The notes beneath the pieces were generated by a model. That model ran no database searches. It was not told the DNA's origin and saw only the letters and a program-made list of their open reading frames with translations. Position numbers and translations under genes: made by a program. From assembly GCF_055900595.2 (NCBI RefSeq), contig NZ_CM148325.1: a stretch of 64,000 bases of DNA; one strand, 5' to 3'. The stretch's first letter is position 1. The number at the start of each line of letters is the position of its first letter. This document shows, piece after piece, positions 5,339 to 37,165 of the stretch.

Positions 5339-5410
5339 TAAACATCCCGAAGCCATCCTGCGCCCGTTCGCGGGAGGCTTCCACACATCTGTAGTCGGGA
5401 GGATTGCGCC

Positions 5411-25515: not shown

Positions 25516-28500
25516 CTAATCTCTGTCACGGAAACTACCGACTGTCTGGCGGATACGGCGTTCCATTTCCGCACGGACGGCATCACCCACCATTTTTGCC
25601 AGTTCGCGCGGGTTTTGCGTGTGAACATCATGCAGGTGAATATGCAGTTCGCCAGTTAATCCCCATGGTGCCGGATCACTCTGACGCGGTCGGGGCGATG
25701 CGGGGGATATGGGCTGGCGCACAGCCTCAACCACCGGACGGGATGTTGCCGTTACGACGGGTGTCATTACCGGCGCAATATTGCCGGACACTACCGGTTT
25801 AATTACCGGGGAGAGCGTCGGTATAACATCGCCAGCCATAACCGGTTTGATCGCTGGCGAAATAACCGGAGCAACAGACTCAGCCATGACGGAACTGACA
25901 GGCTGAGGCGCTCTCACTATGCCAGCATCGATAACCAGCATGAGCTCGCGTACTGCCTCAAGGACAGGACGGGATATTGCCGCCATCACTGGTGTCATTA
26001 GCGGGGAGAACGTCGGCATGACATCGTGAGTCATAACCGGTTTGATCACCGGCGAAACCACCGGCGTAATATTACCGGACAGTACCGGACGGACGACCGG
26101 AGGAATAACCGGCACATTATTCACGGACACCACCGGCTTCACGACCGGCGACACGTTCGCCGTGGTGGATATCAGCGGCGAAACACTGACAGGCGGTGGC
26201 GCTGGCAGCGGTGGCAACGAAGGCACACTGACCGACGGCACCTGCGGCAGTCTGACAGGTGGCTCACTGACACTACCCGGTAACAGGGAAGCTGCGCGGT
26301 TAAAGCGTTCCTCCTTCCACTCACCACGAACGGCCAGCGCTTCCGGCAGGTTTTTAAAGATAATATCGCCGGGACCAGTGCGTTTTTTCGCCTGTTTCGC
26401 CTCATCCAGCAGGCCACCGGTGTTATCGACGATTTTATTCAGGCGACGCATGGTGCCGGTATTCTCCCCCGTCAGCGGAGCAGTTGCTGCAGGTGCAGGT
26501 ACTGGCGGCTTTTTGTCTTTGTCATTTTGCGGCGGATTAATGACATTAACATCCGCCAGGAGCATGGCGGCTTTCTCGTTCAGCAGCTCCTTCTGCTTCA
26601 GCTCTTCCGCCTTTTTCCGGGCGCGCTCAACCGCCGACGGAATCAGCCCGAGTTTTTCCAGCACCCGGGTTAATGAGTCAATCAGCAGCGTAACCGGACC
26701 GGTCACCAGATTGCTGATAAACTCCCCGACCTTCTGCCCGAACGTCCGCCCGGCTTCCGTGCACTTGTCCAGCTCATCCTTTGTTGTGCTTACCGGCGCG
26801 AACAAATCCACGAACCACTGCCACACACGCCCGATTGTCTGCCCGACATACTCAAACAATGGTCCCAGTGGTGCCACAGCCTCGCGCAGTGGCGTAAGCC
26901 CCTGCCACAGGCCGGACAAGAACCCGCCCACGACAGCCTTCAGCTGGTCCCAGTGCCGCCAGATAAGCACTGCCGCACCGACCAGTGTCGCCACCACAAG
27001 GCCCACCGGACTTAACAGAAAACCCAGCGCCCCGCCAAGTGCGCCCACCGCACCACTCACCATCCCCCACAGTGCGGGCAGACCTGACAGTCTGAGCGCC
27101 AGTATTCCGATACCGCGCCCCAGTGAAATCAGTGCGCCGCCAGGTGAAGTGAACGCAGCCAGCAGACCACCACGCAGCGCGCCAAGTCCCGCCTGCACAC
27201 CACGAAGCCGCCCCGCAACTACGCCCAGCAGTGCAGCAAACCGTCCGGCACCGGAGGTGATACCGACAAACAGCACGCGCCAGCCACCGATACCGCCCAG
27301 CGGACCACCGAGTACGCCGCGCAGCTGCGTCAGTAACGGCAGCGCACGACCGAGGCCGGATGTGCCGGTCAGCAGGGCAAACCCAAGACGCAGTTTTGCC
27401 AGCGGCCCCATCAACACACCAGTGGCAAGTGACAGCGCCCCCATGGCCGCAACCGCAGCCAGCAGTGCACCACCGGCAATCAGCAGTTGTTTTGTCAGTT
27501 CAGGGTGCGCCTGGGCCAGCGCGGTGACTTTCGCAATAACCCGGGTGAACGACTGCGTGACAGAACGCAGCGGCCCGTCAACGAGGTCAGCGACACGGAT
27601 ACGCAGCCCTTCCCATGCGCTGTTCAGTGATTTCAGGTCGCCGTCCAGGTTGTCCGCCATGATTCTGGCGTTTTCTTCCAGTTCGCCGTTCGCTGCCTGA
27701 ATCTCACGCGTCAGGCGCGGCAGGTTTTTTTCGCCTGCCTGTTCAACCAGGCTCATCAGGGAGACATACGCCTCCTGCCCGGCAATATCTGAAAAGAACG
27801 AGACTTTTGCCGCGTTACCGTATTTACGGGTGGCCTGATACAGCTCATACAGGATATCTTCCATCGGGCGCATGTTCCCGTAAGCATCCTGCGTTTCCAC
27901 GCCCAGCTGTTTCAGCGCCTTTGCTGCCGCTTTAGGCGGGTTCACAAGGCGGGACAGACTGGAGCGCAGCGCCGTACCAGCATCACTGCCACGTATCCCC
28001 ATCGACCCAAGCAACCCGGTCATGGCTGCGGTCTGTTCAAGAGACAGACCGAGTGAGGCGGCGACCGGTCCCGTATATTTCATCGTCTCACCAAGCCCGC
28101 GCAGGTCGGTATTGGTGCGGGTGAACGTTGCGGCCAGCGTGTCACCCACGCGGTTCATCTGGTCGGCAGACAACCCGAACTGCGTAAGGATATTTGAGCT
28201 GATATCGGCCGTCTGACCGAGGTCCATGCCGCTGGCCGTTGCCAGATTCAGCACGCCGGGAAGAGCCGCCTGTATCGCCTGCGGCGTGAACCCCGCCATG
28301 GCAAGGAACGCCTGACCGCTGGCAGCATCACCTGCGGTAAACTGCGTTTCGGAGCCGAGTTTAAGCGCCTGTTCGCGCAGCGCCTTAAACTGCGGACTGT
28401 TTTTGTCAATACGGGTCAGCGCCTGGACGCGCGACATCTCCTTACCAAAACTGACCGCCGGTTGCAGGAAACGCCCGGCCGCATAGCCACCTGCCGCTGC

Positions 28501-29058
28501 CGTGCCGACTGCCGTAAATCCACCCGCTTTCAGTTTTCCCGCCATCTCCTGAGCGCGGAAATATTGCTGGCGTGCCTGCGTGACGCGTGCCAGAGTCTGC
28601 CGTTCACGTTCCAGCTGTTCGTTGTATTGCTGTGTTCGCCGTATGGCCTGTTGAATGGTGTTGTCACTGCCGGAAAGCGCAATACCGTGACGCCGCAGCT
28701 CACCACCCAGTTCGCGCATTCGCTGAACTTCACGCGCACGGACCTCATTGAGACGCTCAAGTTTGAGGCTCAAATCGTTCATCAGCTTTTTCTGTTTGTC
28801 AGACAGCACGGTTCCGGCGCGCTGAATTTGCTGAAGTGCGCTTAACTGGCGTTGTGCCCGGGCAATGCCGTTTCCGGCCTTGTTTGCAGCCTCGCGGGCG
28901 CGATCAAATGAACGGGCGTGGCGTTCCAGGTTTTTGATCGCACCCTGCGTTCTCTGTATGGAGTCGCCAAGCTGGCCCATCATGCGACGGGCGTTTTCGG
29001 TGGGACGGGTCAGCCTGTCAACAGCGCTGAAGGCGACCCGTATATCAAGCGTTTTCAT
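25516..29058 (-). CDS. T: Tail tape measure protein, gpT-like (about 1180 aa from ATG 29056-29058; ORF track starts at GTG 29094)
   Basis: Very long helical protein with glycine-rich TM-like middle; an unusual Pro/Val-rich internally duplicated region near the C-terminus (DNA about 25700-26300). Confidence 0.85.
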   Translation of the reverse strand: MKTLDIRVAFSAVDRLTRPTENARRMMGQLGDSIQRTQGAIKNLERHARSFDRAREAANKAGNGIARAQRQLSALQQIQRAGTVLSDKQKKLMNDLSLKLERLNEVRAREVQRMRELGGELRRHGIALSGSDNTIQQAIRRTQQYNEQLERERQTLARVTQARQQYFRAQEMAGKLKAGGFTAVGTAAAGGYAAGRFLQPAVSFGKEMSRVQALTRIDKNSPQFKALREQALKLGSETQFTAGDAASGQAFLAMAGFTPQAIQAALPGVLNLATASGMDLGQTADISSNILTQFGLSADQMNRVGDTLAATFTRTNTDLRGLGETMKYTGPVAASLGLSLEQTAAMTGLLGSMGIRGSDAGTALRSSLSRLVNPPKAAAKALKQLGVETQDAYGNMRPMEDILYELYQATRKYGNAAKVSFFSDIAGQEAYVSLMSLVEQAGEKNLPRLTREIQAANGELEENARIMADNLDGDLKSLNSAWEGLRIRVADLVDGPLRSVTQSFTRVIAKVTALAQAHPELTKQLLIAGGALLAAVAAMGALSLATGVLMGPLAKLRLGFALLTGTSGLGRALPLLTQLRGVLGGPLGGIGGWRVLFVGITSGAGRFAALLGVVAGRLRGVQAGLGALRGGLLAAFTSPGGALISLGRGIGILALRLSGLPALWGMVSGAVGALGGALGFLLSPVGLVVATLVGAAVLIWRHWDQLKAVVGGFLSGLWQGLTPLREAVAPLGPLFEYVGQTIGRVWQWFVDLFAPVSTTKDELDKCTEAGRTFGQKVGEFISNLVTGPVTLLIDSLTRVLEKLGLIPSAVERARKKAEELKQKELLNEKAAMLLADVNVINPPQNDKDKKPPVPAPAATAPLTGENTGTMRRLNKIVDNTGGLLDEAKQAKKRTGPGDIIFKNLPEALAVRGEWKEERFNRAASLLPGSVSEPPVRLPQVPSVSVPSLPPLPAPPPVSVSPLISTTANVSPVVKPVVSVNNVPVIPPVVRPVLSGNITPVVSPVIKPVMTHDVMPTFSPLMTPVMAAISRPVLEAVRELMLVIDAGIVRAPQPVSSVMAESVAPVISPAIKPVMAGDVIPTLSPVIKPVVSGNIAPVMTPVVTATSRPVVEAVRQPISPASPRPRQSDPAPWGLTGELHIHLHDVHTQNPRELAKMVGDAVRAEMERRIRQTVGSFRDRD

Positions 29059-29571
29059 GCTCTGCGTTCCCGCTGCGAAGGGCCGCCCGCTCACGCCAGG
29101 CGACCACCTCGCCGGGATCCATCAGGAAGATTTCAGCGGGAGACCAGTTGAAAATAACGGCGATATCCGCCACAAAGTCTTCAATATGCTCAAAGGGCAC
29201 GACGGTTATCAGCCTGCCGTCGCCGCCACGCTCTTCCCGCCAGAGTCCTGACCGGCCAAAAAATTAACCGCCACCCCGCACAGCTGAATAAAATCAGCGG
29301 ACCCCATGCGCTTAAGCAGAACCTCGTCCAGTCGCGGCGAAGTGACGCGCGGGAGTAACTCAAACATCGCGTCCGTTTTCATGTTCAGCACGTCAAGCAG
29401 TGACAGCCCGCGCAGTGAACCGGCCTGCTGTACAGCAGGCGTGATTTCCACATACGTGATTTTTTTGTTACCGAGCACAAGGGGCGTTTTCAGCGTCACG
29501 CCGCGCTCACTGGTCACGTCCGCCGCATCAGCACCGTCAGTAACAGGGGCAACAACCGGATTTTCTTTCAT
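29045..29571 (-). CDS. E: Tail assembly chaperone gpE, with predicted -1 frameshift extension E+E'
   Basis: E ORF 29209..29571. Slippery T TTT TTG on the minus strand at 29257-29263 inside codons N-F-L; the -1 frame stays open to a TGA at 29045-29047, overlapping the start of T, as in P2 E/E'. Confidence 0.7.
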
Positions 29572-32718: not shown

Positions 32719-32970
32719 ATGTTCCGTTGTCCCCTGTGCGGTGCATCCGCACGTATCCGCACCAGTCGCAATGAAAATGATTCAGGCACAGTTCGCCTGA
32801 AGTACTACCAGTGCAATAACCTCGAATGCGGGATCGGCTTTACCACACTGGAGGGTTTTAACAAATTCACATCAAAACGCGCCCCGTCGCCGCAGGGTAC
32901 AGAGCGGATACCGTGGGAAGATTTTCCGGGATCTCACAGGGGGAATGCTCAGATGAATCTTGATATTTAA
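32719..32970 (+). CDS. ogr: Late-gene transcriptional activator, Ogr/Delta zinc-finger family
   Basis: MFRCPLCGASARIRTSR...YYQCNNLECGIGFTTLE, a C2C2 zinc finger matching recalled P2 Ogr (MFHCPLC...HQCQNVNC). Confidence 0.85.
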   Translation: MFRCPLCGASARIRTSRNENDSGTVRLKYYQCNNLECGIGFTTLEGFNKFTSKRAPSPQGTERIPWEDFPGSHRGNAQMNLDI

Positions 32971-32974
32971 GAAC

Positions 32975-33990
32975 AATAATCAGGTTGAGAGGACATCATA
33001 AGGCAAGTAGATTAACGGCAGATACTTTCCCGCAACCACGGGCAAGTATTTAATTATCCATGATGAAATATGACCTAAATTGTTTTTTGCCCGCCGGAAA
33101 GCGGGCATTTTTTTATTCTTTTGTGGTTATGGGGTCATCAGGAACCACGTGCAGATTATATTTTTGTTTTTTTGGCGTTCCTCCGGCAGCAACGAGTTCA
33201 TCAATAAGACACTGACACGCCTGAACATCCCGGGCATGTCTTAGTTTCACCTTTATTGATTTAACCTTATCCTCACCGGAGGAGAAATGCAGTTCAATCT
33301 CAATATCGTTTCTTCGGAACAATCTCATACGCCCCCCTGAACATATCAGAAATGCTAGTATCGAAAAATGAGAAAACAGTTAGACAGGAGAAACATATTA
33401 ACACAAATCATTTATACCTATAGATGAAATTATAATTTCATTCATGAATATGATAGATAACTATATTGTGAACAAAATGAAAAATGGCTAAATTAAAAAT
33501 GGGCATGGAGGAATGCCTCGTAATCAGTAATACATGATCCATACTTCCTTGTTTTGCCCGCCGGAAAGCGGGCATTTTTTTGGCGGTTACCATCGCCTCA
33601 CCTTCCTGGTTCACACAAAGCAACCCTGATTTTCCATGAAAACTTCAGGGTTGAGCCAAAAGCACAAAGACAGTAGATTAACCAAGGGTACCCGCCACCT
33701 GCCAACAGGAACGGTATCCAGTACGTATTAATGACTGACAATTCACATTGCTGTTTTGCCCGCCAGAAGGTGGGCATTTTTTTGGCAGTTATCATGGACG
33801 CACCTTCATGACACATATTAAGCAGACCTGATTTTTCCATGAAAAATTCATGGTTGAGACAAAAGCACAAAAACAGTAGATTAACCACGGGTGCCTGCCA
33901 CCTGACAACAGGAAGGGGTGTCCATTATCCATGATATACAAACGAAAAGTCTTGTCTTTTGCCCGCCGTTGCGCGGGCTTTTTTTTTGCC
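32975..33990. repeat. Array of diverged att-like repeat units, each ending in a GC hairpin plus T-tract
   Basis: Hairpin GCCCGCC-loop-GCGGGC plus T-run at 33089-33115, 33556-33582, 33768-33792 and 33961-33987. Units share GGTTGAG...AGTAGATTAACC...CCACGGG...TTATCCATGAT; the first unit directly follows ogr. Confidence 0.6.
33113..33328 (-). CDS. Hypothetical small protein (71 aa)
   Basis: ORF track; G-rich Shine-Dalgarno-like sequence upstream; AT-rich promoter-like region with palindrome ATGAAATTATAATTTCAT upstream on the minus strand. Confidence 0.35.
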   Translation of the reverse strand: MRLFRRNDIEIELHFSSGEDKVKSIKVKLRHARDVQACQCLIDELVAAGGTPKKQKYNLHVVPDDPITTKE

Positions 33991-34016
33991 ACCCTCACCA
34001 GTGAGGGTACCATCAT

Positions 34017-34238
34017 TCAGAGGCGCGTAAGCCACCCGGCGTTAACATCCTGCCCGTCAACCCTGACCGCAGAGTCTGAACGGCAGGCACCGGAAGCAGT
34101 ACCAAAAACACCTCTGACAAGTTCCGCCACCTTCCCGATATCATCAGGCGCCACATTCCTCACCTCGACAGCGATCCGTGGCGTACCATCATCGTTAACA
34201 AGCGTGGCTTTAAGGCTGGTACGACGGGCAAATAACAT
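34017..34238 (-). CDS. Hypothetical small protein (73 aa from ATG 34236-34238; ORF track gives 95 aa)
   Basis: GGGAGGGGG Shine-Dalgarno 6 nt before the ATG; MLFARRTSLKATLVNDDGTPRIAVEVRNVAPDDIGKVAELVRGVFG...; no recognised family. Confidence 0.4.
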   Translation of the reverse strand: MLFARRTSLKATLVNDDGTPRIAVEVRNVAPDDIGKVAELVRGVFGTASGACRSDSAVRVDGQDVNAGWLTRL

Positions 34239-34395
34239 CAACACCCCCTCCCTTCGGTTCGTTGCACTGGCAGCACGATACCACCAGGAAAAAGAAAAGC
34301 CCACAACGTCAGGATTGCGGGCTTTTTTTCTTCAAAAATGGACACTACGTGGACACTGATTAAATAATCCTTTCTTAATCAGACTGTTAAAATGC

Positions 34396-34426
34396 TTGAC
34401 CTTCCCCTTGCTGGAAGGTTTAACCT
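34396..34426 (+). promoter_or_regulatory. copA promoter with CueR operator
   Basis: TTGACC -35, then the dyad CCTTCC-N7-GGAAGG (34400-34418) inside a long spacer, typical of a MerR-family (CueR) promoter. Confidence 0.7.
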
Positions 34427-34465: not shown

Positions 34466-36970
34466 ATGTCACAAACTATCGACCTGACCCTGGACGGCCT
34501 GTCCTGCGGTCACTGCGTTAAACGCGTGAAAGAAAGTCTCGAACAGCGCCCGGATGTTGAGCAGGCGGATGTGTCTATCACTGAAGCGCACGTTACCGGT
34601 ACTGCCAGTGCAGAACAGCTGATCGAAACCATCAAACAAGCGGGTTATGACGCATCTGTAAGCCACCCAAAGGCTAAACCGCTGGCGGAGTCATCAATCC
34701 CGTCGGAAGCACTGACAGCGGTTTCTGAGGCGCTTCCGGCAGCAAACGCCGATGACGATGACAGTCAGCAGTTGCTGCTGAGCGGCATGAGCTGCGCCAG
34801 CTGTGTTACCCGCGTACAAAATGCGCTGCAAAGCGTACCGGGCGTCACTCAGGCACGGGTAAACCTGGCGGAGCGTACTGCGCTGGTGATGGGCAGTGCC
34901 TCCCCACAAGATTTAGTGCAGGCAGTGGAAAAAGCGGGCTACGGCGCGGAAGCGATTGAAGATGACGCTAAACGCCGCGAGCGCCAGCAGGAAACCGCCG
35001 TCGCTACCATGAAGCGCTTCCGCTGGCAGGCAATTGTCGCTCTGGCGGTAGGTATCCCGGTGATGGTCTGGGGGATGATCGGCGATAACATGATGGTCAC
35101 CGCCGACAACCGCAGTCTGTGGTTAGTTATCGGCCTGATAACGCTGGCGGTAATGGTTTTCGCCGGCGGGCATTTTTACCGTAGCGCATGGAAAAGCCTG
35201 CTGAACGGTGCGGCGACAATGGATACGCTGGTGGCGCTGGGTACTGGCGTGGCGTGGCTCTATTCAATGAGCGTCAACCTGTGGCCGCAGTGGTTCCCGA
35301 TGGAAGCGCGACATCTTTATTACGAAGCCAGTGCGATGATTATCGGTCTGATTAATCTCGGTCATATGCTGGAAGCGCGCGCACGTCAGCGTTCTTCAAA
35401 GGCGCTGGAGAAATTACTCGATTTAACCCCGCCGACGGCGCGCCTGGTCACTGACGAAGGTGAAAAAAGCGTGCCGCTGGCAGATGTTCAGCCTGGTATG
35501 TTACTACGCCTGACGACCGGCGATCGCGTACCGGTAGATGGTGAAATTACCCAGGGCGAAGCGTGGCTGGATGAAGCAATGCTGACGGGCGAACCTATTC
35601 CGCAGCAAAAAGGCGAAGGCGATAGCGTTCATGCAGGTACCGTGGTGCAGGACGGTAGCGTGCTGTTTCGTGCCAGTGCGGTTGGCAGCCATACTACGCT
35701 GTCACGGATCATTCGTATGGTGCGCCAGGCCCAGAGCAGTAAACCGGAAATCGGCCAGTTGGCGGATAAAATCTCTGCCGTATTTGTGCCGGTAGTGGTG
35801 GTGATTGCGCTGGTCAGTGCGGCAATCTGGTACTTCTTTGGTCCGGCACCGCAAATTGTTTATACCCTGGTGATTGCCACTACGGTACTGATTATCGCCT
35901 GCCCGTGTGCGCTGGGGCTGGCAACGCCAATGTCGATTATTTCCGGCGTCGGGCGTGCGGCTGAATTTGGCGTGCTGGTGCGGGACGCCGACGCGCTGCA
36001 GCGCGCCAGTACGCTCGACACCGTAGTGTTCGATAAAACCGGGACGCTGACCGAAGGGAAGCCGCAGGTTGTCGCAGTAAAAACATTTGCTGATGTTGAT
36101 GAAGCGCAAGCATTGCGTCTGGCGGCGGCACTGGAACAAGGTTCCAGCCATCCGCTGGCACGGGCGATCCTCGATAAAGCAGGCGATATGCAGCTGCCGC
36201 AGGTCAACAGCTTCCGTACATTGCGTGGGCTGGGCGTGAGCGGTGAAGCAGAAGGTCATGCGTTATTGCTGGGTAATCAGGCGTTGTTAAATGACCAGCA
36301 AGTCGATACTAAAGCGATTGAAGCAGATATTTCAGCCCAGGCATCGCAAGGGGCAACGCCTGTGCTGCTGGCGGTTGACGGGAAAGCGGTGGCCTTGCTG
36401 GCGGTGCGCGATCCGTTGCGTAACGATAGTGTGGCGGCACTGCAACGTCTGCATAAAGCGGGATATCGTCTGGTGATGCTAACCGGGGATAACCCGACCA
36501 CCGCCAATGCGATCGCCAAAGAAGCAGGGATTGATGAGGTGATAGCCGGCGTGCTGCCAGACGGTAAAGCCGAAGCGATCAAACGTCTGCAAAGTGAAGG
36601 ACGTCAGGTGGCAATGGTGGGCGACGGCATTAACGACGCGCCAGCGCTGGCTCAGGCGGATGTCGGTATTGCTATGGGTGGCGGCAGCGATGTTGCCATT
36701 GAAACCGCGGCGATTACCCTGATGCGCCATAGCCTGATGGGTGTTGCGGATGCGCTCGCAATTTCCCGCGCAACGCTGCGCAACATGAAGCAGAACCTGC
36801 TCGGTGCGTTTATCTACAACAGCATTGGTATTCCGGTCGCCGCCGGTATTTTGTGGCCGTTCACGGGAACACTGCTTAACCCGGTGGTTGCCGGAGCGGC
36901 AATGGCGCTCTCGTCGATTACCGTAGTGAGTAACGCCAACCGGTTGCTGCGGTTTAAACCGAAGGAATAA
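34466..36970 (+). CDS. copA: Cu(I)-translocating P-type ATPase
   Basis: 834 aa; two N-terminal GLSCGHC / GMSCASC metal-binding motifs, CPC in the TM domain, DKTGTLT phosphorylation motif. Confidence 0.95.
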
Positions 36971-37165
36971 GTATGTCATTGCGGATGCGCTGCTTTAGGG
37001 TGGCGCATCTGGCATCGACGCATGCCTGCCGGATGCGGCGATGTTTTGGCCTTACGCGACCTTTTTGCACGTTTTCCCCGGCGTGCCAAATATTTAATCC
37101 GTCCCAACTCCATTTGCGCCATCCCTCACCGCGCGCTAGCATGATATTTCACAAAGGGAGGTCGT

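Follow-up and report, generated by a model that had tools for sequence, protein, structure and literature searches.

Two small ORFs at the right end, from ogr to attR, of a P88-like prophage at the Escherichia coli copA promoter

Genes and features between ogr and copA

The 64,000-nt stretch of contig NZ_CM148325.1 (assembly GCF_055900595.2) that was analysed, hereafter the window, carries two small minus-strand ORFs, ORF71 and ORF73, between the late-gene activator gene ogr of a prophage and the host gene copA. Both had been described in the original prediction, each with a Shine-Dalgarno sequence, together with a palindrome in an AT-rich stretch. All of these were found as described, and both ORFs are annotated in RefSeq. 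The features of the region are the following:

32719–32970, plus strand: ogr/Delta-type late-gene activator (RefSeq WP_000488096.1, ogr/Delta-like zinc finger protein)
32985–33114, plus strand: repeat unit u1, with TTGAGA-17-TAGATT, a body of ~95 nt that begins with a 5′ hairpin and continues in an AU-rich linker, and then an intrinsic terminator (85 bits)
33113–33328, minus strand: ORF71, 71 aa, ATG start (RefSeq WP_001236182.1 in identical DNA)
33424–33441, no strand: palindrome ATGAAATTATAATTTCAT, a perfect 18-mer in the 23% G+C DNA that separates ORF71 from unit u4
33467–33581, plus strand: repeat unit u4, weaker and divergent, with TTGTGA (33467)-17-TAAATT (33490) (38.6 bits, E = 2e-5)
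33651–33783, plus strand: repeat unit u2, with TTGAGC-17-TAGATT, a 98-nt body and a terminator (90.6 bits)
33854–33987, plus strand: repeat unit u3, with TTGAGA-17-TAGATT, a 99-nt body and a terminator (99.8 bits)
34017–34238, minus strand: ORF73, 73 aa (RefSeq WP_029490443.1), the last ORF before attR
34244–34252, minus strand: Shine-Dalgarno sequence of ORF73, GGGAGGGGG, 5 nt before the ATG
34295–34326, no strand: long hairpin with a 13-pair stem (minus strand), TTTTTTT after the hairpin (plus strand) and thus T-runs on both strands
34339–34356, plus strand: two direct TGGACAC repeats, to the right of ORF73
34395–34414, no strand: att core CTTGACCTTCCCCTTGCTGG at attR, located by sequence, by comparison with attL and by the empty site
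34466–36970, plus strand: copA, the host gene downstream of attR (ORF list and RefSeq)

The annotated prophage extends from int, beside glsA, to ogr, which is the last conserved gene of its structural region and the left edge of a variable arm. As judged from the sequence, the true right boundary is not ogr but positions 34395–34414, within the copA promoter. The attL/attR duplication consists of the 20-bp core CTTGACCTTCCCCTTGCTGG, whose attL copy is located at 5379–5398 of L004. Beyond this core there is no identity between the prophage ends; it is the sole sequence common to both, and it lies to the right of ORF71 and ORF73. In attR it spans the −35 hexamer of the copA promoter and the left half of a CCTTCC-N7-GGAAGG dyad. 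When both prophage flanks were joined, the resulting insertion-free glsA-copA intergenic region (the "empty site") was contiguous in 5402 of the 5426 complete E. coli genomes and carried the core once. Because the core in the copA promoter is the only duplicated sequence and the empty site is found in these genomes, everything up to 34394, both ORFs included, lies inside the resident prophage and belongs to it.

The original prediction had located the ORFs outside the prophage, on its copA side, and this has to be corrected, since both lie inside the prophage, between ogr and attR. Its statement that K-12 does not have them upstream of copA agrees with the empty site being the usual state of this region in complete E. 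coli genomes. The assignment to phage cargo stands as well, but the proposed source in decayed prophages or in a separate small element does not, both ORFs being part of a resident and apparently intact prophage, whose tape-measure ORF is intact within the window.

This P2-like prophage is close to P88 (Xuanwuvirus, Peduoviridae), rare in E. coli and inserted in the copA promoter. P88, which was obtained by prophage induction (PMC5285337), is the closest sequenced phage (gpD 77.7% identical in amino acids). As in the resident prophage, an inverted sheath-tube-tape-measure block diverges from D-ogr, small cargo is found 3′ of ogr, and the last gene is encoded on the minus strand, with a hairpin and a GTGGACA motif separating it from att. 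The two differ in the content of this slot, where P88 has hok/mok and a minus-strand gene for an 80-aa protein unrelated to ORF71 and ORF73, and the published attP core of P88 is a 14-mer different from the 20-bp core found here (PMC5285337).

The long hairpin at 34295–34326 is terminator-like in both directions because of its T-runs on both strands, and it stands between the prophage arm and the att region with the copA promoter. Of the sequence at the TGGACAC repeats, TGTGGACAC is found also beside int at attL, and GTGGACA beside the att end of P88. In view of the arm sites of P2 Int, we take these repeats to be candidate integrase arm-type binding sites.

In an alternative reading, the ORFs and the repeats were left behind by earlier prophages or by a small integrative element distinct from the present one, and successive integrations at the same site produced several att scars before copA. 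The ~200-bp repeated units do adjoin the prophage end, the arm is mosaic, and decayed gene copies are present in relatives. Nevertheless, this is highly improbable. The repeats, which the original prediction had called att-like, have no copy at attL, where the 20-bp core is the only common sequence; at two other chromosomal sites, ihfA and serS, the prophage is again accompanied by the entire arm; the presumed arm-type sites lie to the right of ORF73; and neither a second integrase gene nor a tRNA is present.

ORF71 and the phrog_14142 family

ORF71 is a real protein, an N-terminally shortened, stand-alone form of the C-terminal beta-hairpin/helix domain of the uncharacterised phrog_14142 family (~128 aa). 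In the hmmscan search of PHROGs it matched this family with E = 4.9e-12 (46.9 bits), aligned to the C-terminal 56 positions. The exhaustive HMMER search (phmmer) returned relatives of 128–133 aa, aligned over their residues 72–124. Through the profile search 71 family members were found in Salmonella, Citrobacter, Enterobacter, Klebsiella, Yersinia, Pectobacterium and others, and the clusters of ORF71 itself (P0001 and P0002) scored 104–107 bits. Typical examples of the family are P0013 (Salmonella) and P0049 (Klebsiella/Raoultella), both of ~128 aa and located in P2-like prophages.

In the alignment of 34 sequences, ORF71 keeps all invariant columns at ~44% identity, that is, M72, L74, D79, E81, E83, L100, R101, C109 and L112 in the numbering of P0013. 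Its start corresponds to the family-internal Met72; residues 1–71 are absent, the DNA upstream is AT-rich and unrelated, and tblastn detected no N-terminal family remnant there. The full-length ~128-aa architecture is not present and, therefore, ORF71 is a domain-only variant, with a C-terminal extension of 14 aa.

The genes of the family are placed at the prophage edge, by att or int, in every P2-like context examined and downstream of the primase in one P4-like element. In detail, L018 and L027/28 have the gene converging with ogr, and in L023 it comes immediately after int. In L012 and L024–26 it occupies the edge of the prophage, and in L014 it follows the P4-type primase. ORF71, convergent with ogr and att-proximal, agrees with the family in its position. 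The consistently kept att-adjacent location suggests that phrog_14142 proteins may have a role related to lysogeny. The family has no Pfam domain, and profile searches of PDB sequences gave no solved relative; the AlphaFold model of a 128-aa member (pLDDT 51) was too poor for a structure search.

The palindrome at 33424–33441 reads TATAAT on both strands and could possibly be the −10 element or an operator of the ORF71 cassette. The block that flanks it (families D9/D10) recurs with every ORF71 copy of the prophage located at serS (L003).

Because the N-terminal half of the family is missing and the extra copies in L003 decay freely, with truncated or degenerate copies among them, ORF71 could be a dispensable fragment. 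This is one part of a rival explanation in which ORF71 is what truncation has left of a 128-aa gene and can be dispensed with, ORF73 is a chance frame in GC-rich attP-proximal DNA, and the region is a decaying mosaic without protein function. In its favour, some of the "short forms" in other places are in fact long forms that are truncated or were called wrongly. On the other hand, ORF71 has diverged by ~55% from the long forms and still retains all invariant residues and an intact frame, which points to selection over a long time on a protein that stands alone, and P4-like elements have an independent stand-alone form, likewise without N-terminal remnant. As a whole, the rival explanation is considered rather unlikely; its second part depends on ORF73.

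ORF73

The mechanical ORF of ORF73 extends to a GTG at 34304 (95 aa), and the start preceded by a Shine-Dalgarno sequence is the ATG at 34238. Two variants of the ORF occur in E. coli. The variant of the serS site differs by 7.7% (17 of 222 nt) and conserves both the ORF and the Shine-Dalgarno sequence, the latter as GGGAGGGGA. No homologue outside E. coli was found among 5.8 billion proteins or in IMG/VR, where just one, identical, copy is present. As a further variant, P0008 (73% identity) was set aside, its source assemblies being full of frameshifts. The original prediction was to be refuted if both ORFs lacked homologues and expression; as to homologues, the answer is divided between ORF71, with homologues across the Enterobacterales, and ORF73, with none beyond E. 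coli.

Several results are in accordance with a chance frame. The two-variant comparison gave a dN/dS of 0.6–0.8, with changed codon positions of 7/4/6. Among random mutants with 17 substitutions, 70% stay open, and 11.9 amino-acid changes are expected against 11 observed; the substitutions thus look neutral. PGAP has no annotation for the serS-type copy in 26 genomes, and one assembly has a frameshifted form (P0009). Moreover, the same 1.3 kb that holds both ORFs also contains clearly spurious ORFs of 74, 96 and 142 aa, and for this reason the length of an ORF could by itself be due to chance in this region.

Against the chance frame stands the ATG with its strong, conserved and correctly spaced Shine-Dalgarno sequence. 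The frame is the only one of the six that is without stop in the window and also intact in the serS variant, and its codon score is the best of the six (0.106 per codon vs 0.059 for ogr). The single-sequence AlphaFold model (pLDDT 65) is moderately confident and contains a beta-hairpin and a helix over residues 8–46 (pLDDT 72–78); Foldseek gave no PDB match to it below E = 0.1. Weighing these points, the balance tips slightly towards ORF73 being a real gene.

A kinship of the two ORFs was first suspected from their similar size, N-termini and predicted beta-beta-alpha order, of which the order alone is alike. ORF73 as a distant homologue of ORF71 or phrog_14142 was rejected: hhalign gave a probability of 0.1%, the HMM score of 1.5 bits was matched by 61 of 2000 shuffles, and BLASTP returned only a mis-registered match of 21 aa, so that homology is statistically rejected.

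Repeat units and cassettes of the variable arm

A 30-nt hairpin with a T-run is found at 33085, 33552, 33754 and 33957, and a unit of ~203 bp stands in tandem. The supposed att-like repeats are four predicted small plus-strand units, each composed of a promoter-like site, ~95 nt and a terminator. In the divergent u4, the hairpin and the terminator are located at 33502–33517 and 33555–33581, respectively. The layout of Hfq-type sRNAs (promoter, 5′ stem-loop, AU-rich single-stranded stretch and U-tail terminator) is present in prediction. The units share with the promoter region of the P88 hok mRNA the −35 TTG, the −10 TAGATTA and the 5′-hairpin start GGGTGCCT, and because of this resemblance they are candidate sRNA genes. 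They differ from hok/sok in terminating after ~95 nt and in having no hok/mok frame, no conserved ORF and no Rfam match.

The folds of the units have z-scores of −0.7 to −3.4, the lowest being that of u1 (MFE −27.7 kcal/mol), which is a candidate sRNA and/or the 3′UTR of ogr. Double changes were seen in two of the 19 pairs among seven paralogues. The motif ATCATGGATAAT occurs solely in the units themselves. No unit reached any Rfam gathering score, with best matches at chance level (E = 0.02 or weaker), and no tRNA was detected, so that a tRNA or a known RNA family is rejected. Small peptides were also rejected, because the shared ATG stands in different frames relative to the hairpin between copies. 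In a search for targets, 113 translation-start regions of the window were tested, and the strongest duplexes did not exceed those of shuffled controls.

The T-tail of u1 abuts and overlaps the stop codon of ORF71, and the stop of ORF73 is 30 nt from the terminator of u3. The ORFs might be paired with convergent small RNAs, read-through of each mRNA being antisense to u1 or u3 and vice versa, in an antisense-controlled module as in the 3′-overlapping type I toxin-antitoxin systems of prophages. Besides these overlaps, the hok-type promoter of the units, the presence of hok and HicAB in the same slot of relatives and the minus strand after both ORFs, where no terminator is recognisable, are compatible with such a pairing. 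It is nonetheless improbable: neither protein is hydrophobic or toxin-like, PADLOC and Pfam gave no toxin match, in other members of the family the terminators are plain and the unit is missing, and the units are restricted to ~30 E. coli genomes and transcribed by prediction only.

ORF71 and ORF73 are accessory cargo of the variable ogr-attP arm, at the far right end of the P88-like prophage. ORF71 is found 3′ of ogr in prophages at copA, ihfA and serS. Its region is present in 30 genomes and that of ORF73 in 31. The arm is mosaic in structure: small cassettes, each self-contained, meet at terminator hairpins that are almost identical to one another. For instance, the match (H17) to the sister prophage at ihfA stops at position 33986 of the window, the end of unit u3, which is the switch point to HicAB in place of ORF73, and the prophage at serS carries a 3.7-kb array of hok copies and degenerate ORF71 copies. 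The G+C content varies from 23 to 59% within 1 kb of the arm and is unlike the composition of the neighbours. A more elaborate model may be drawn from these data, in which the arm is a shuffling array: four hok-promoter-derived Hfq-type sRNA genes would be convergent with ORF71 and ORF73 and antisense-coupled to them as a maintenance or anti-phage module, and the 30-nt terminator hairpins would be the recombination joints that swap hok, HicAB, ORF71 and ORF73 between phages. We regard this model as speculative and doubtful.

Extra genes that have transcription signals of their own and stand between conserved phage genes are termed "morons" (Hendrix and colleagues). The cassettes of the arm resemble these, being present, absent or replaced at a fixed genome position among close relatives, terminator-bounded and opposite to the late genes. 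As to their own signals, the terminator-like hairpins at 33502–33517 and 34295–34326 are upstream of the ORFs. They differ from morons in that no same-strand terminator follows either ORF and the promoters are weakly predictable: the consensus scan found no sigma-70 promoter on the minus strand for either, and by eye there is the TATAAT of the palindrome for ORF71 and an extended −10-like TGGTATCGT for ORF73, which is not kept in the serS variant.

No known function was found for either ORF by Pfam, NCBIfam, PADLOC, PDB or fold matches; PHROGs offered only a family of unknown function, and that for ORF71. A toxin-antitoxin or known anti-phage defence identity was rejected, with no match in PADLOC, Pfam or NCBIfam and both proteins hydrophilic. 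Neither the ORFs nor the arm DNA are present in 50,697 phage records (DNA and protein, long-form family member included), and no paper was found on this att site, the repeat units or the phrog_14142 family. The products would be non-essential proteins that the lysogen expresses from promoters of the cassettes themselves, and by analogy with the neighbouring cargo they would act in prophage maintenance, in the exclusion of other phages or in host modulation, and not in virion production. This functional class is proposed tentatively, from the neighbours only. In conclusion, the reading as a whole is quite probable: ORF71 and ORF73 are prophage cargo, the first a real protein and the second a putative orphan gene, with a role in maintenance, exclusion or modulation only inferred.

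The region is ordinary prophage cargo with modest curiosities. The map is corrected: the right end of the prophage moves from ogr into the copA promoter, and two "hypothetical proteins" become phage cargo. If transcribed, the units would be a new prophage-borne sRNA family on a hok-type promoter. Through ORF71, a gene that is rare in E. coli is connected with an uncharacterised family found across the Enterobacterales. The current view of phage biology is unchanged, and these results are a small, testable addition to it.

The prophage end inside the copA promoter

The features around the boundary at copA are as follows; the sequence at about 33-34.5 kb comes from E. coli.

33113-33328, minus strand: ORF71, 71 aa, ATG start
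34017-34238, minus strand: ORF73, 73 aa
34295-34326: long hairpin, terminator-like on both strands
34339-34356: two direct TGGACAC repeats, just inside attR
34395-34414: att core CTTGACCTTCCCCTTGCTGG, 20 bp, at attR (at attL, 5379-5398 of comparison locus L004)
34466-36970, plus strand: copA

The prophage of strain CS5L starts with an integrase gene (int) adjoining glsA and extends to ogr, the late-gene activator gene. The glsA-int junction reads ...TTATTAATTT CTTGACCTTCCCCTTGCTGG GGACAAAG... and the copA side of the window reads ...GTTAAAATG CTTGACCTTCCCCTTGCTGG AAGGTTTAACC.... The core is the sole duplication between the prophage ends, and identity ceases on either side of it. To rebuild an insertion-free site in silico, the glsA flank was joined through a single core to the copA flank; of 5426 complete E. 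coli genomes, 5402 have this site contiguously, at 95-99% identity. The core duplication and the contiguous empty site therefore assign everything from int through 34394, including both ORFs, to the inserted prophage. This contradicts the original prediction, in which they lay beyond its end and might be left over from decayed prophages. The whole arrangement at copA was found in only 5 of the 5426 genomes.

The prophage sits within the copA promoter. We take the core to span two elements of this promoter, its -35 hexamer and the left half-site of the CueR dyad (CCTTCC-N7-GGAAGG); at attR the promoter was presumably rebuilt from -35 onward by integration, with phage DNA directly upstream. TGTGGACAC is present at attL too, beside int. 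The copA-site and serS-site prophages (window 34339-34392 and L003 5700-5770, respectively) have in common ORF73, the hairpin and the TGGACA(C/T) direct repeats, and part about 25 bp short of their differing att cores. Judged from these sequences, their integrases are putatively related, with the same arm recognition and different core specificity.

The prophage looks complete, with an intact tape-measure ORF of 1192 aa (25516-29094, minus strand). In the near-identical CS5L record this ORF is annotated as an incomplete pseudogene, probably an assembly or annotation difference. The copA-ybaP intergenic region (window 36971-37165) translates into REP-like palindromic repeats and is about 109 bp shorter than in CS5L, as deduced from the differing coordinate offsets on either side. 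Among sequenced phages, the prophage is closest to Escherichia phage P88, a member of Xuanwuvirus (Peduoviridae) with 77.7% aa identity in gpD. P88 was obtained by prophage induction (PMC5285337). At the place matching the TGGACAC repeats, P88 has GTGGACA.

Coding evidence for ORF71 and ORF73

Both ORFs lie where they had been predicted, and both are hypothetical proteins in RefSeq (WP_001236182.1 for ORF71 and WP_029490443.1 for ORF73, from the almost identical genome of strain CS5L). The Shine-Dalgarno of ORF73, GGGAGGGGG, was found 5 nt before the ATG; ORF71 has a weaker signal, AGGGGGG, 3 nt upstream. The palindrome ATGAAATTATAATTTCAT noted between them occupies 33424-33441 and is embedded in DNA of 23% G+C. 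ORF length alone says little here, since ORFs as long as 74, 96 and 142 aa in the same 1.3 kb are plainly spurious.

ORF71 belongs to phrog_14142, a PHROGs family of unknown function (E = 4.9e-12, positions 72-127 of the 128-position profile), and has no match in Pfam, NCBIfam or PADLOC. When 1.84 billion representatives were searched exhaustively with HMMER, it was matched by proteins of 128-133 aa over their residues 72-124 and by one 57-aa form; elsewhere, some of the "57-aa" entries are either truncated or long forms that begin at a GTG. A profile search gave 71 clusters, all "hypothetical" and none with a Pfam domain. Besides E. coli, they occur in Salmonella, Citrobacter, Enterobacter, Klebsiella, Raoultella, Yersinia, Pectobacterium, Kosakonia, Pantoea and Sodalis. 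In a 34-sequence alignment ORF71 (about 44% identity) retains every invariant position (M72, L74, E83, L100, R101, C109 and L112) and also D79, E81, D105 and D114. No remnant of the N-terminal half of the family was found upstream of ORF71, and it is likewise absent at the P4-like copy. We conclude that ORF71 is a domain-only member, long diverged and still constrained, rather than a fresh fragment. For the 128-aa form, AlphaFold gave a poor model (pLDDT 51), with the C-terminal domain predicted as strand-strand-helix, and a sequence-profile search of the PDB gave no relative.

In every context examined, the family gene is at the att end of its element:

L018 and L027/28: convergent with ogr, sole gene before host DNA
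L023: directly after int, with an 11-bp gap
L012 and L024-26: at the prophage edge
L014: after the primase of a P4-like element

ORF73 is an orphan of E. coli only. Among 5.8 billion proteins it matched four clusters, all from E. coli, and IMG/VR added one identical copy; homologues outside E. coli were found in neither, and no relative by fold or sequence was detected. A similarity to the ORF71 family was considered and is unsupported. The alleles are effectively two, a copA type and a serS type with 85% aa identity, between which the Shine-Dalgarno, ATG and frame are kept. Of the six frames, that of ORF73 is the only one both stop-free in the window and an intact ORF in the serS variant. Its codon-usage score is the best of the six (0.106 per codon; ogr, 0.059) and exceeds the 95th percentile of out-of-frame segments. 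Residues 8-46 are modelled as a hairpin and helix (AlphaFold, single sequence, pLDDT 72-78). Counted against a gene are the 17 nucleotide differences between the alleles, with dN/dS of 0.6-0.8 and a spread of 7/4/6 over codon positions. In simulation, 70% of neutral 17-hit mutants remain open, with 11.9 amino-acid changes expected against 11 observed. Similarly, no promoter is predicted between the 34295-34326 hairpin and the ORF73 start, and the serS-type copy has no PGAP call. On balance, the evidence tips slightly towards ORF73 being a real gene.

Cassettes and repeat units between ogr and attR

Between ogr and attR, the prophage arm is built as a mosaic of cassettes. In sister prophages at other chromosomal sites, ORF71 follows ogr beside ihfA (L002) and serS (L003, L007). 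At ihfA, the likeness to the window runs precisely to the final repeat terminator (window 33986), beyond which HicB/HicA take the place of ORF73. The serS-site arm (L003 1800-5820) is expanded to 3.7 kb, with nine terminator copies, five full units, two hok (one intact, one degenerate) and three ORF71 copies (one intact, one truncated, one degenerate); an intact ORF73 homologue is again the final ORF ahead of the host gene. These copies point to a region prone to rapid duplication and erosion. The matching slot of P88 has hok/mok and an 80-aa minus-strand gene unrelated to the window ORFs.

The cargo breakpoints (ORF73 versus HicAB, and the ORF71 block duplications) coincide with near-identical 30-nt terminator hairpins (window 33957-33987; L002 5007; L003 2173 and 4008), which may be recombination joints in cassette exchange.

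The repeats described as att-like are real; they are not att sites, but promoter-like/terminator units:

32985-33114, plus strand: unit u1
33467-33581, plus strand: unit u4
33651-33783, plus strand: unit u2
33854-33987, plus strand: unit u3

Their promoter-like sites have conserved hexamers and a divergent spacer (TTGAG(A/C)-17-TAGATT in three units and a weaker TTGTGA-17-TAAATT in the fourth). The body of about 95 nt is predicted to fold into a stem-loop at its 5' end, followed by an unpaired AU-rich segment and a GC hairpin that carries a U-tail; it has no consistent reading frame. A covariance-model search found the units in this prophage group only, in about 30 E. coli genomes with 2-9 places in each; with so few copies, all closely similar, the covariation signal is weak. 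They reached the gathering score of no Rfam family, and the best matches (E = 0.02 and weaker) resemble chance hits or hits to terminators. The unit promoter (-35 TTG, -10 TAGATTA) and the start of the first hairpin, GGGTGCCT..., align with the promoter and leader of the P88 hok mRNA (window 33630-33700 and 33833-33900; L020 3215-3330), and this alignment suggests that the units may descend from hok loci with the toxin part lost. They are candidate Hfq-type sRNA genes; for u1, an identity as the 3'UTR of ogr is equally possible. ORF71 and ORF73 each converge on the terminator of a unit and neither is followed by a minus-strand terminator, so an antisense coupling is possible, if unsupported.

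Among the 5426 genomes, the ORF71 region and the units each occur in 30 and the ORF73 region occurs in 31, always on chromosomes and never on plasmids; many isolates listed as carriers originate from poultry.

Prophage cargo and its possible roles

ORF71 and ORF73 are ordinary prophage cargo, rightly flagged as unannotated. They would be accessory genes with non-structural products, whose expression does not depend on the late operons. A role in prophage maintenance, exclusion or host modulation is a tentative suggestion, by analogy with the hok and HicAB that the slot holds in relatives. The interest of the region lies in two modest points, an uncharacterised att-proximal protein family and a possible new family of prophage sRNAs.
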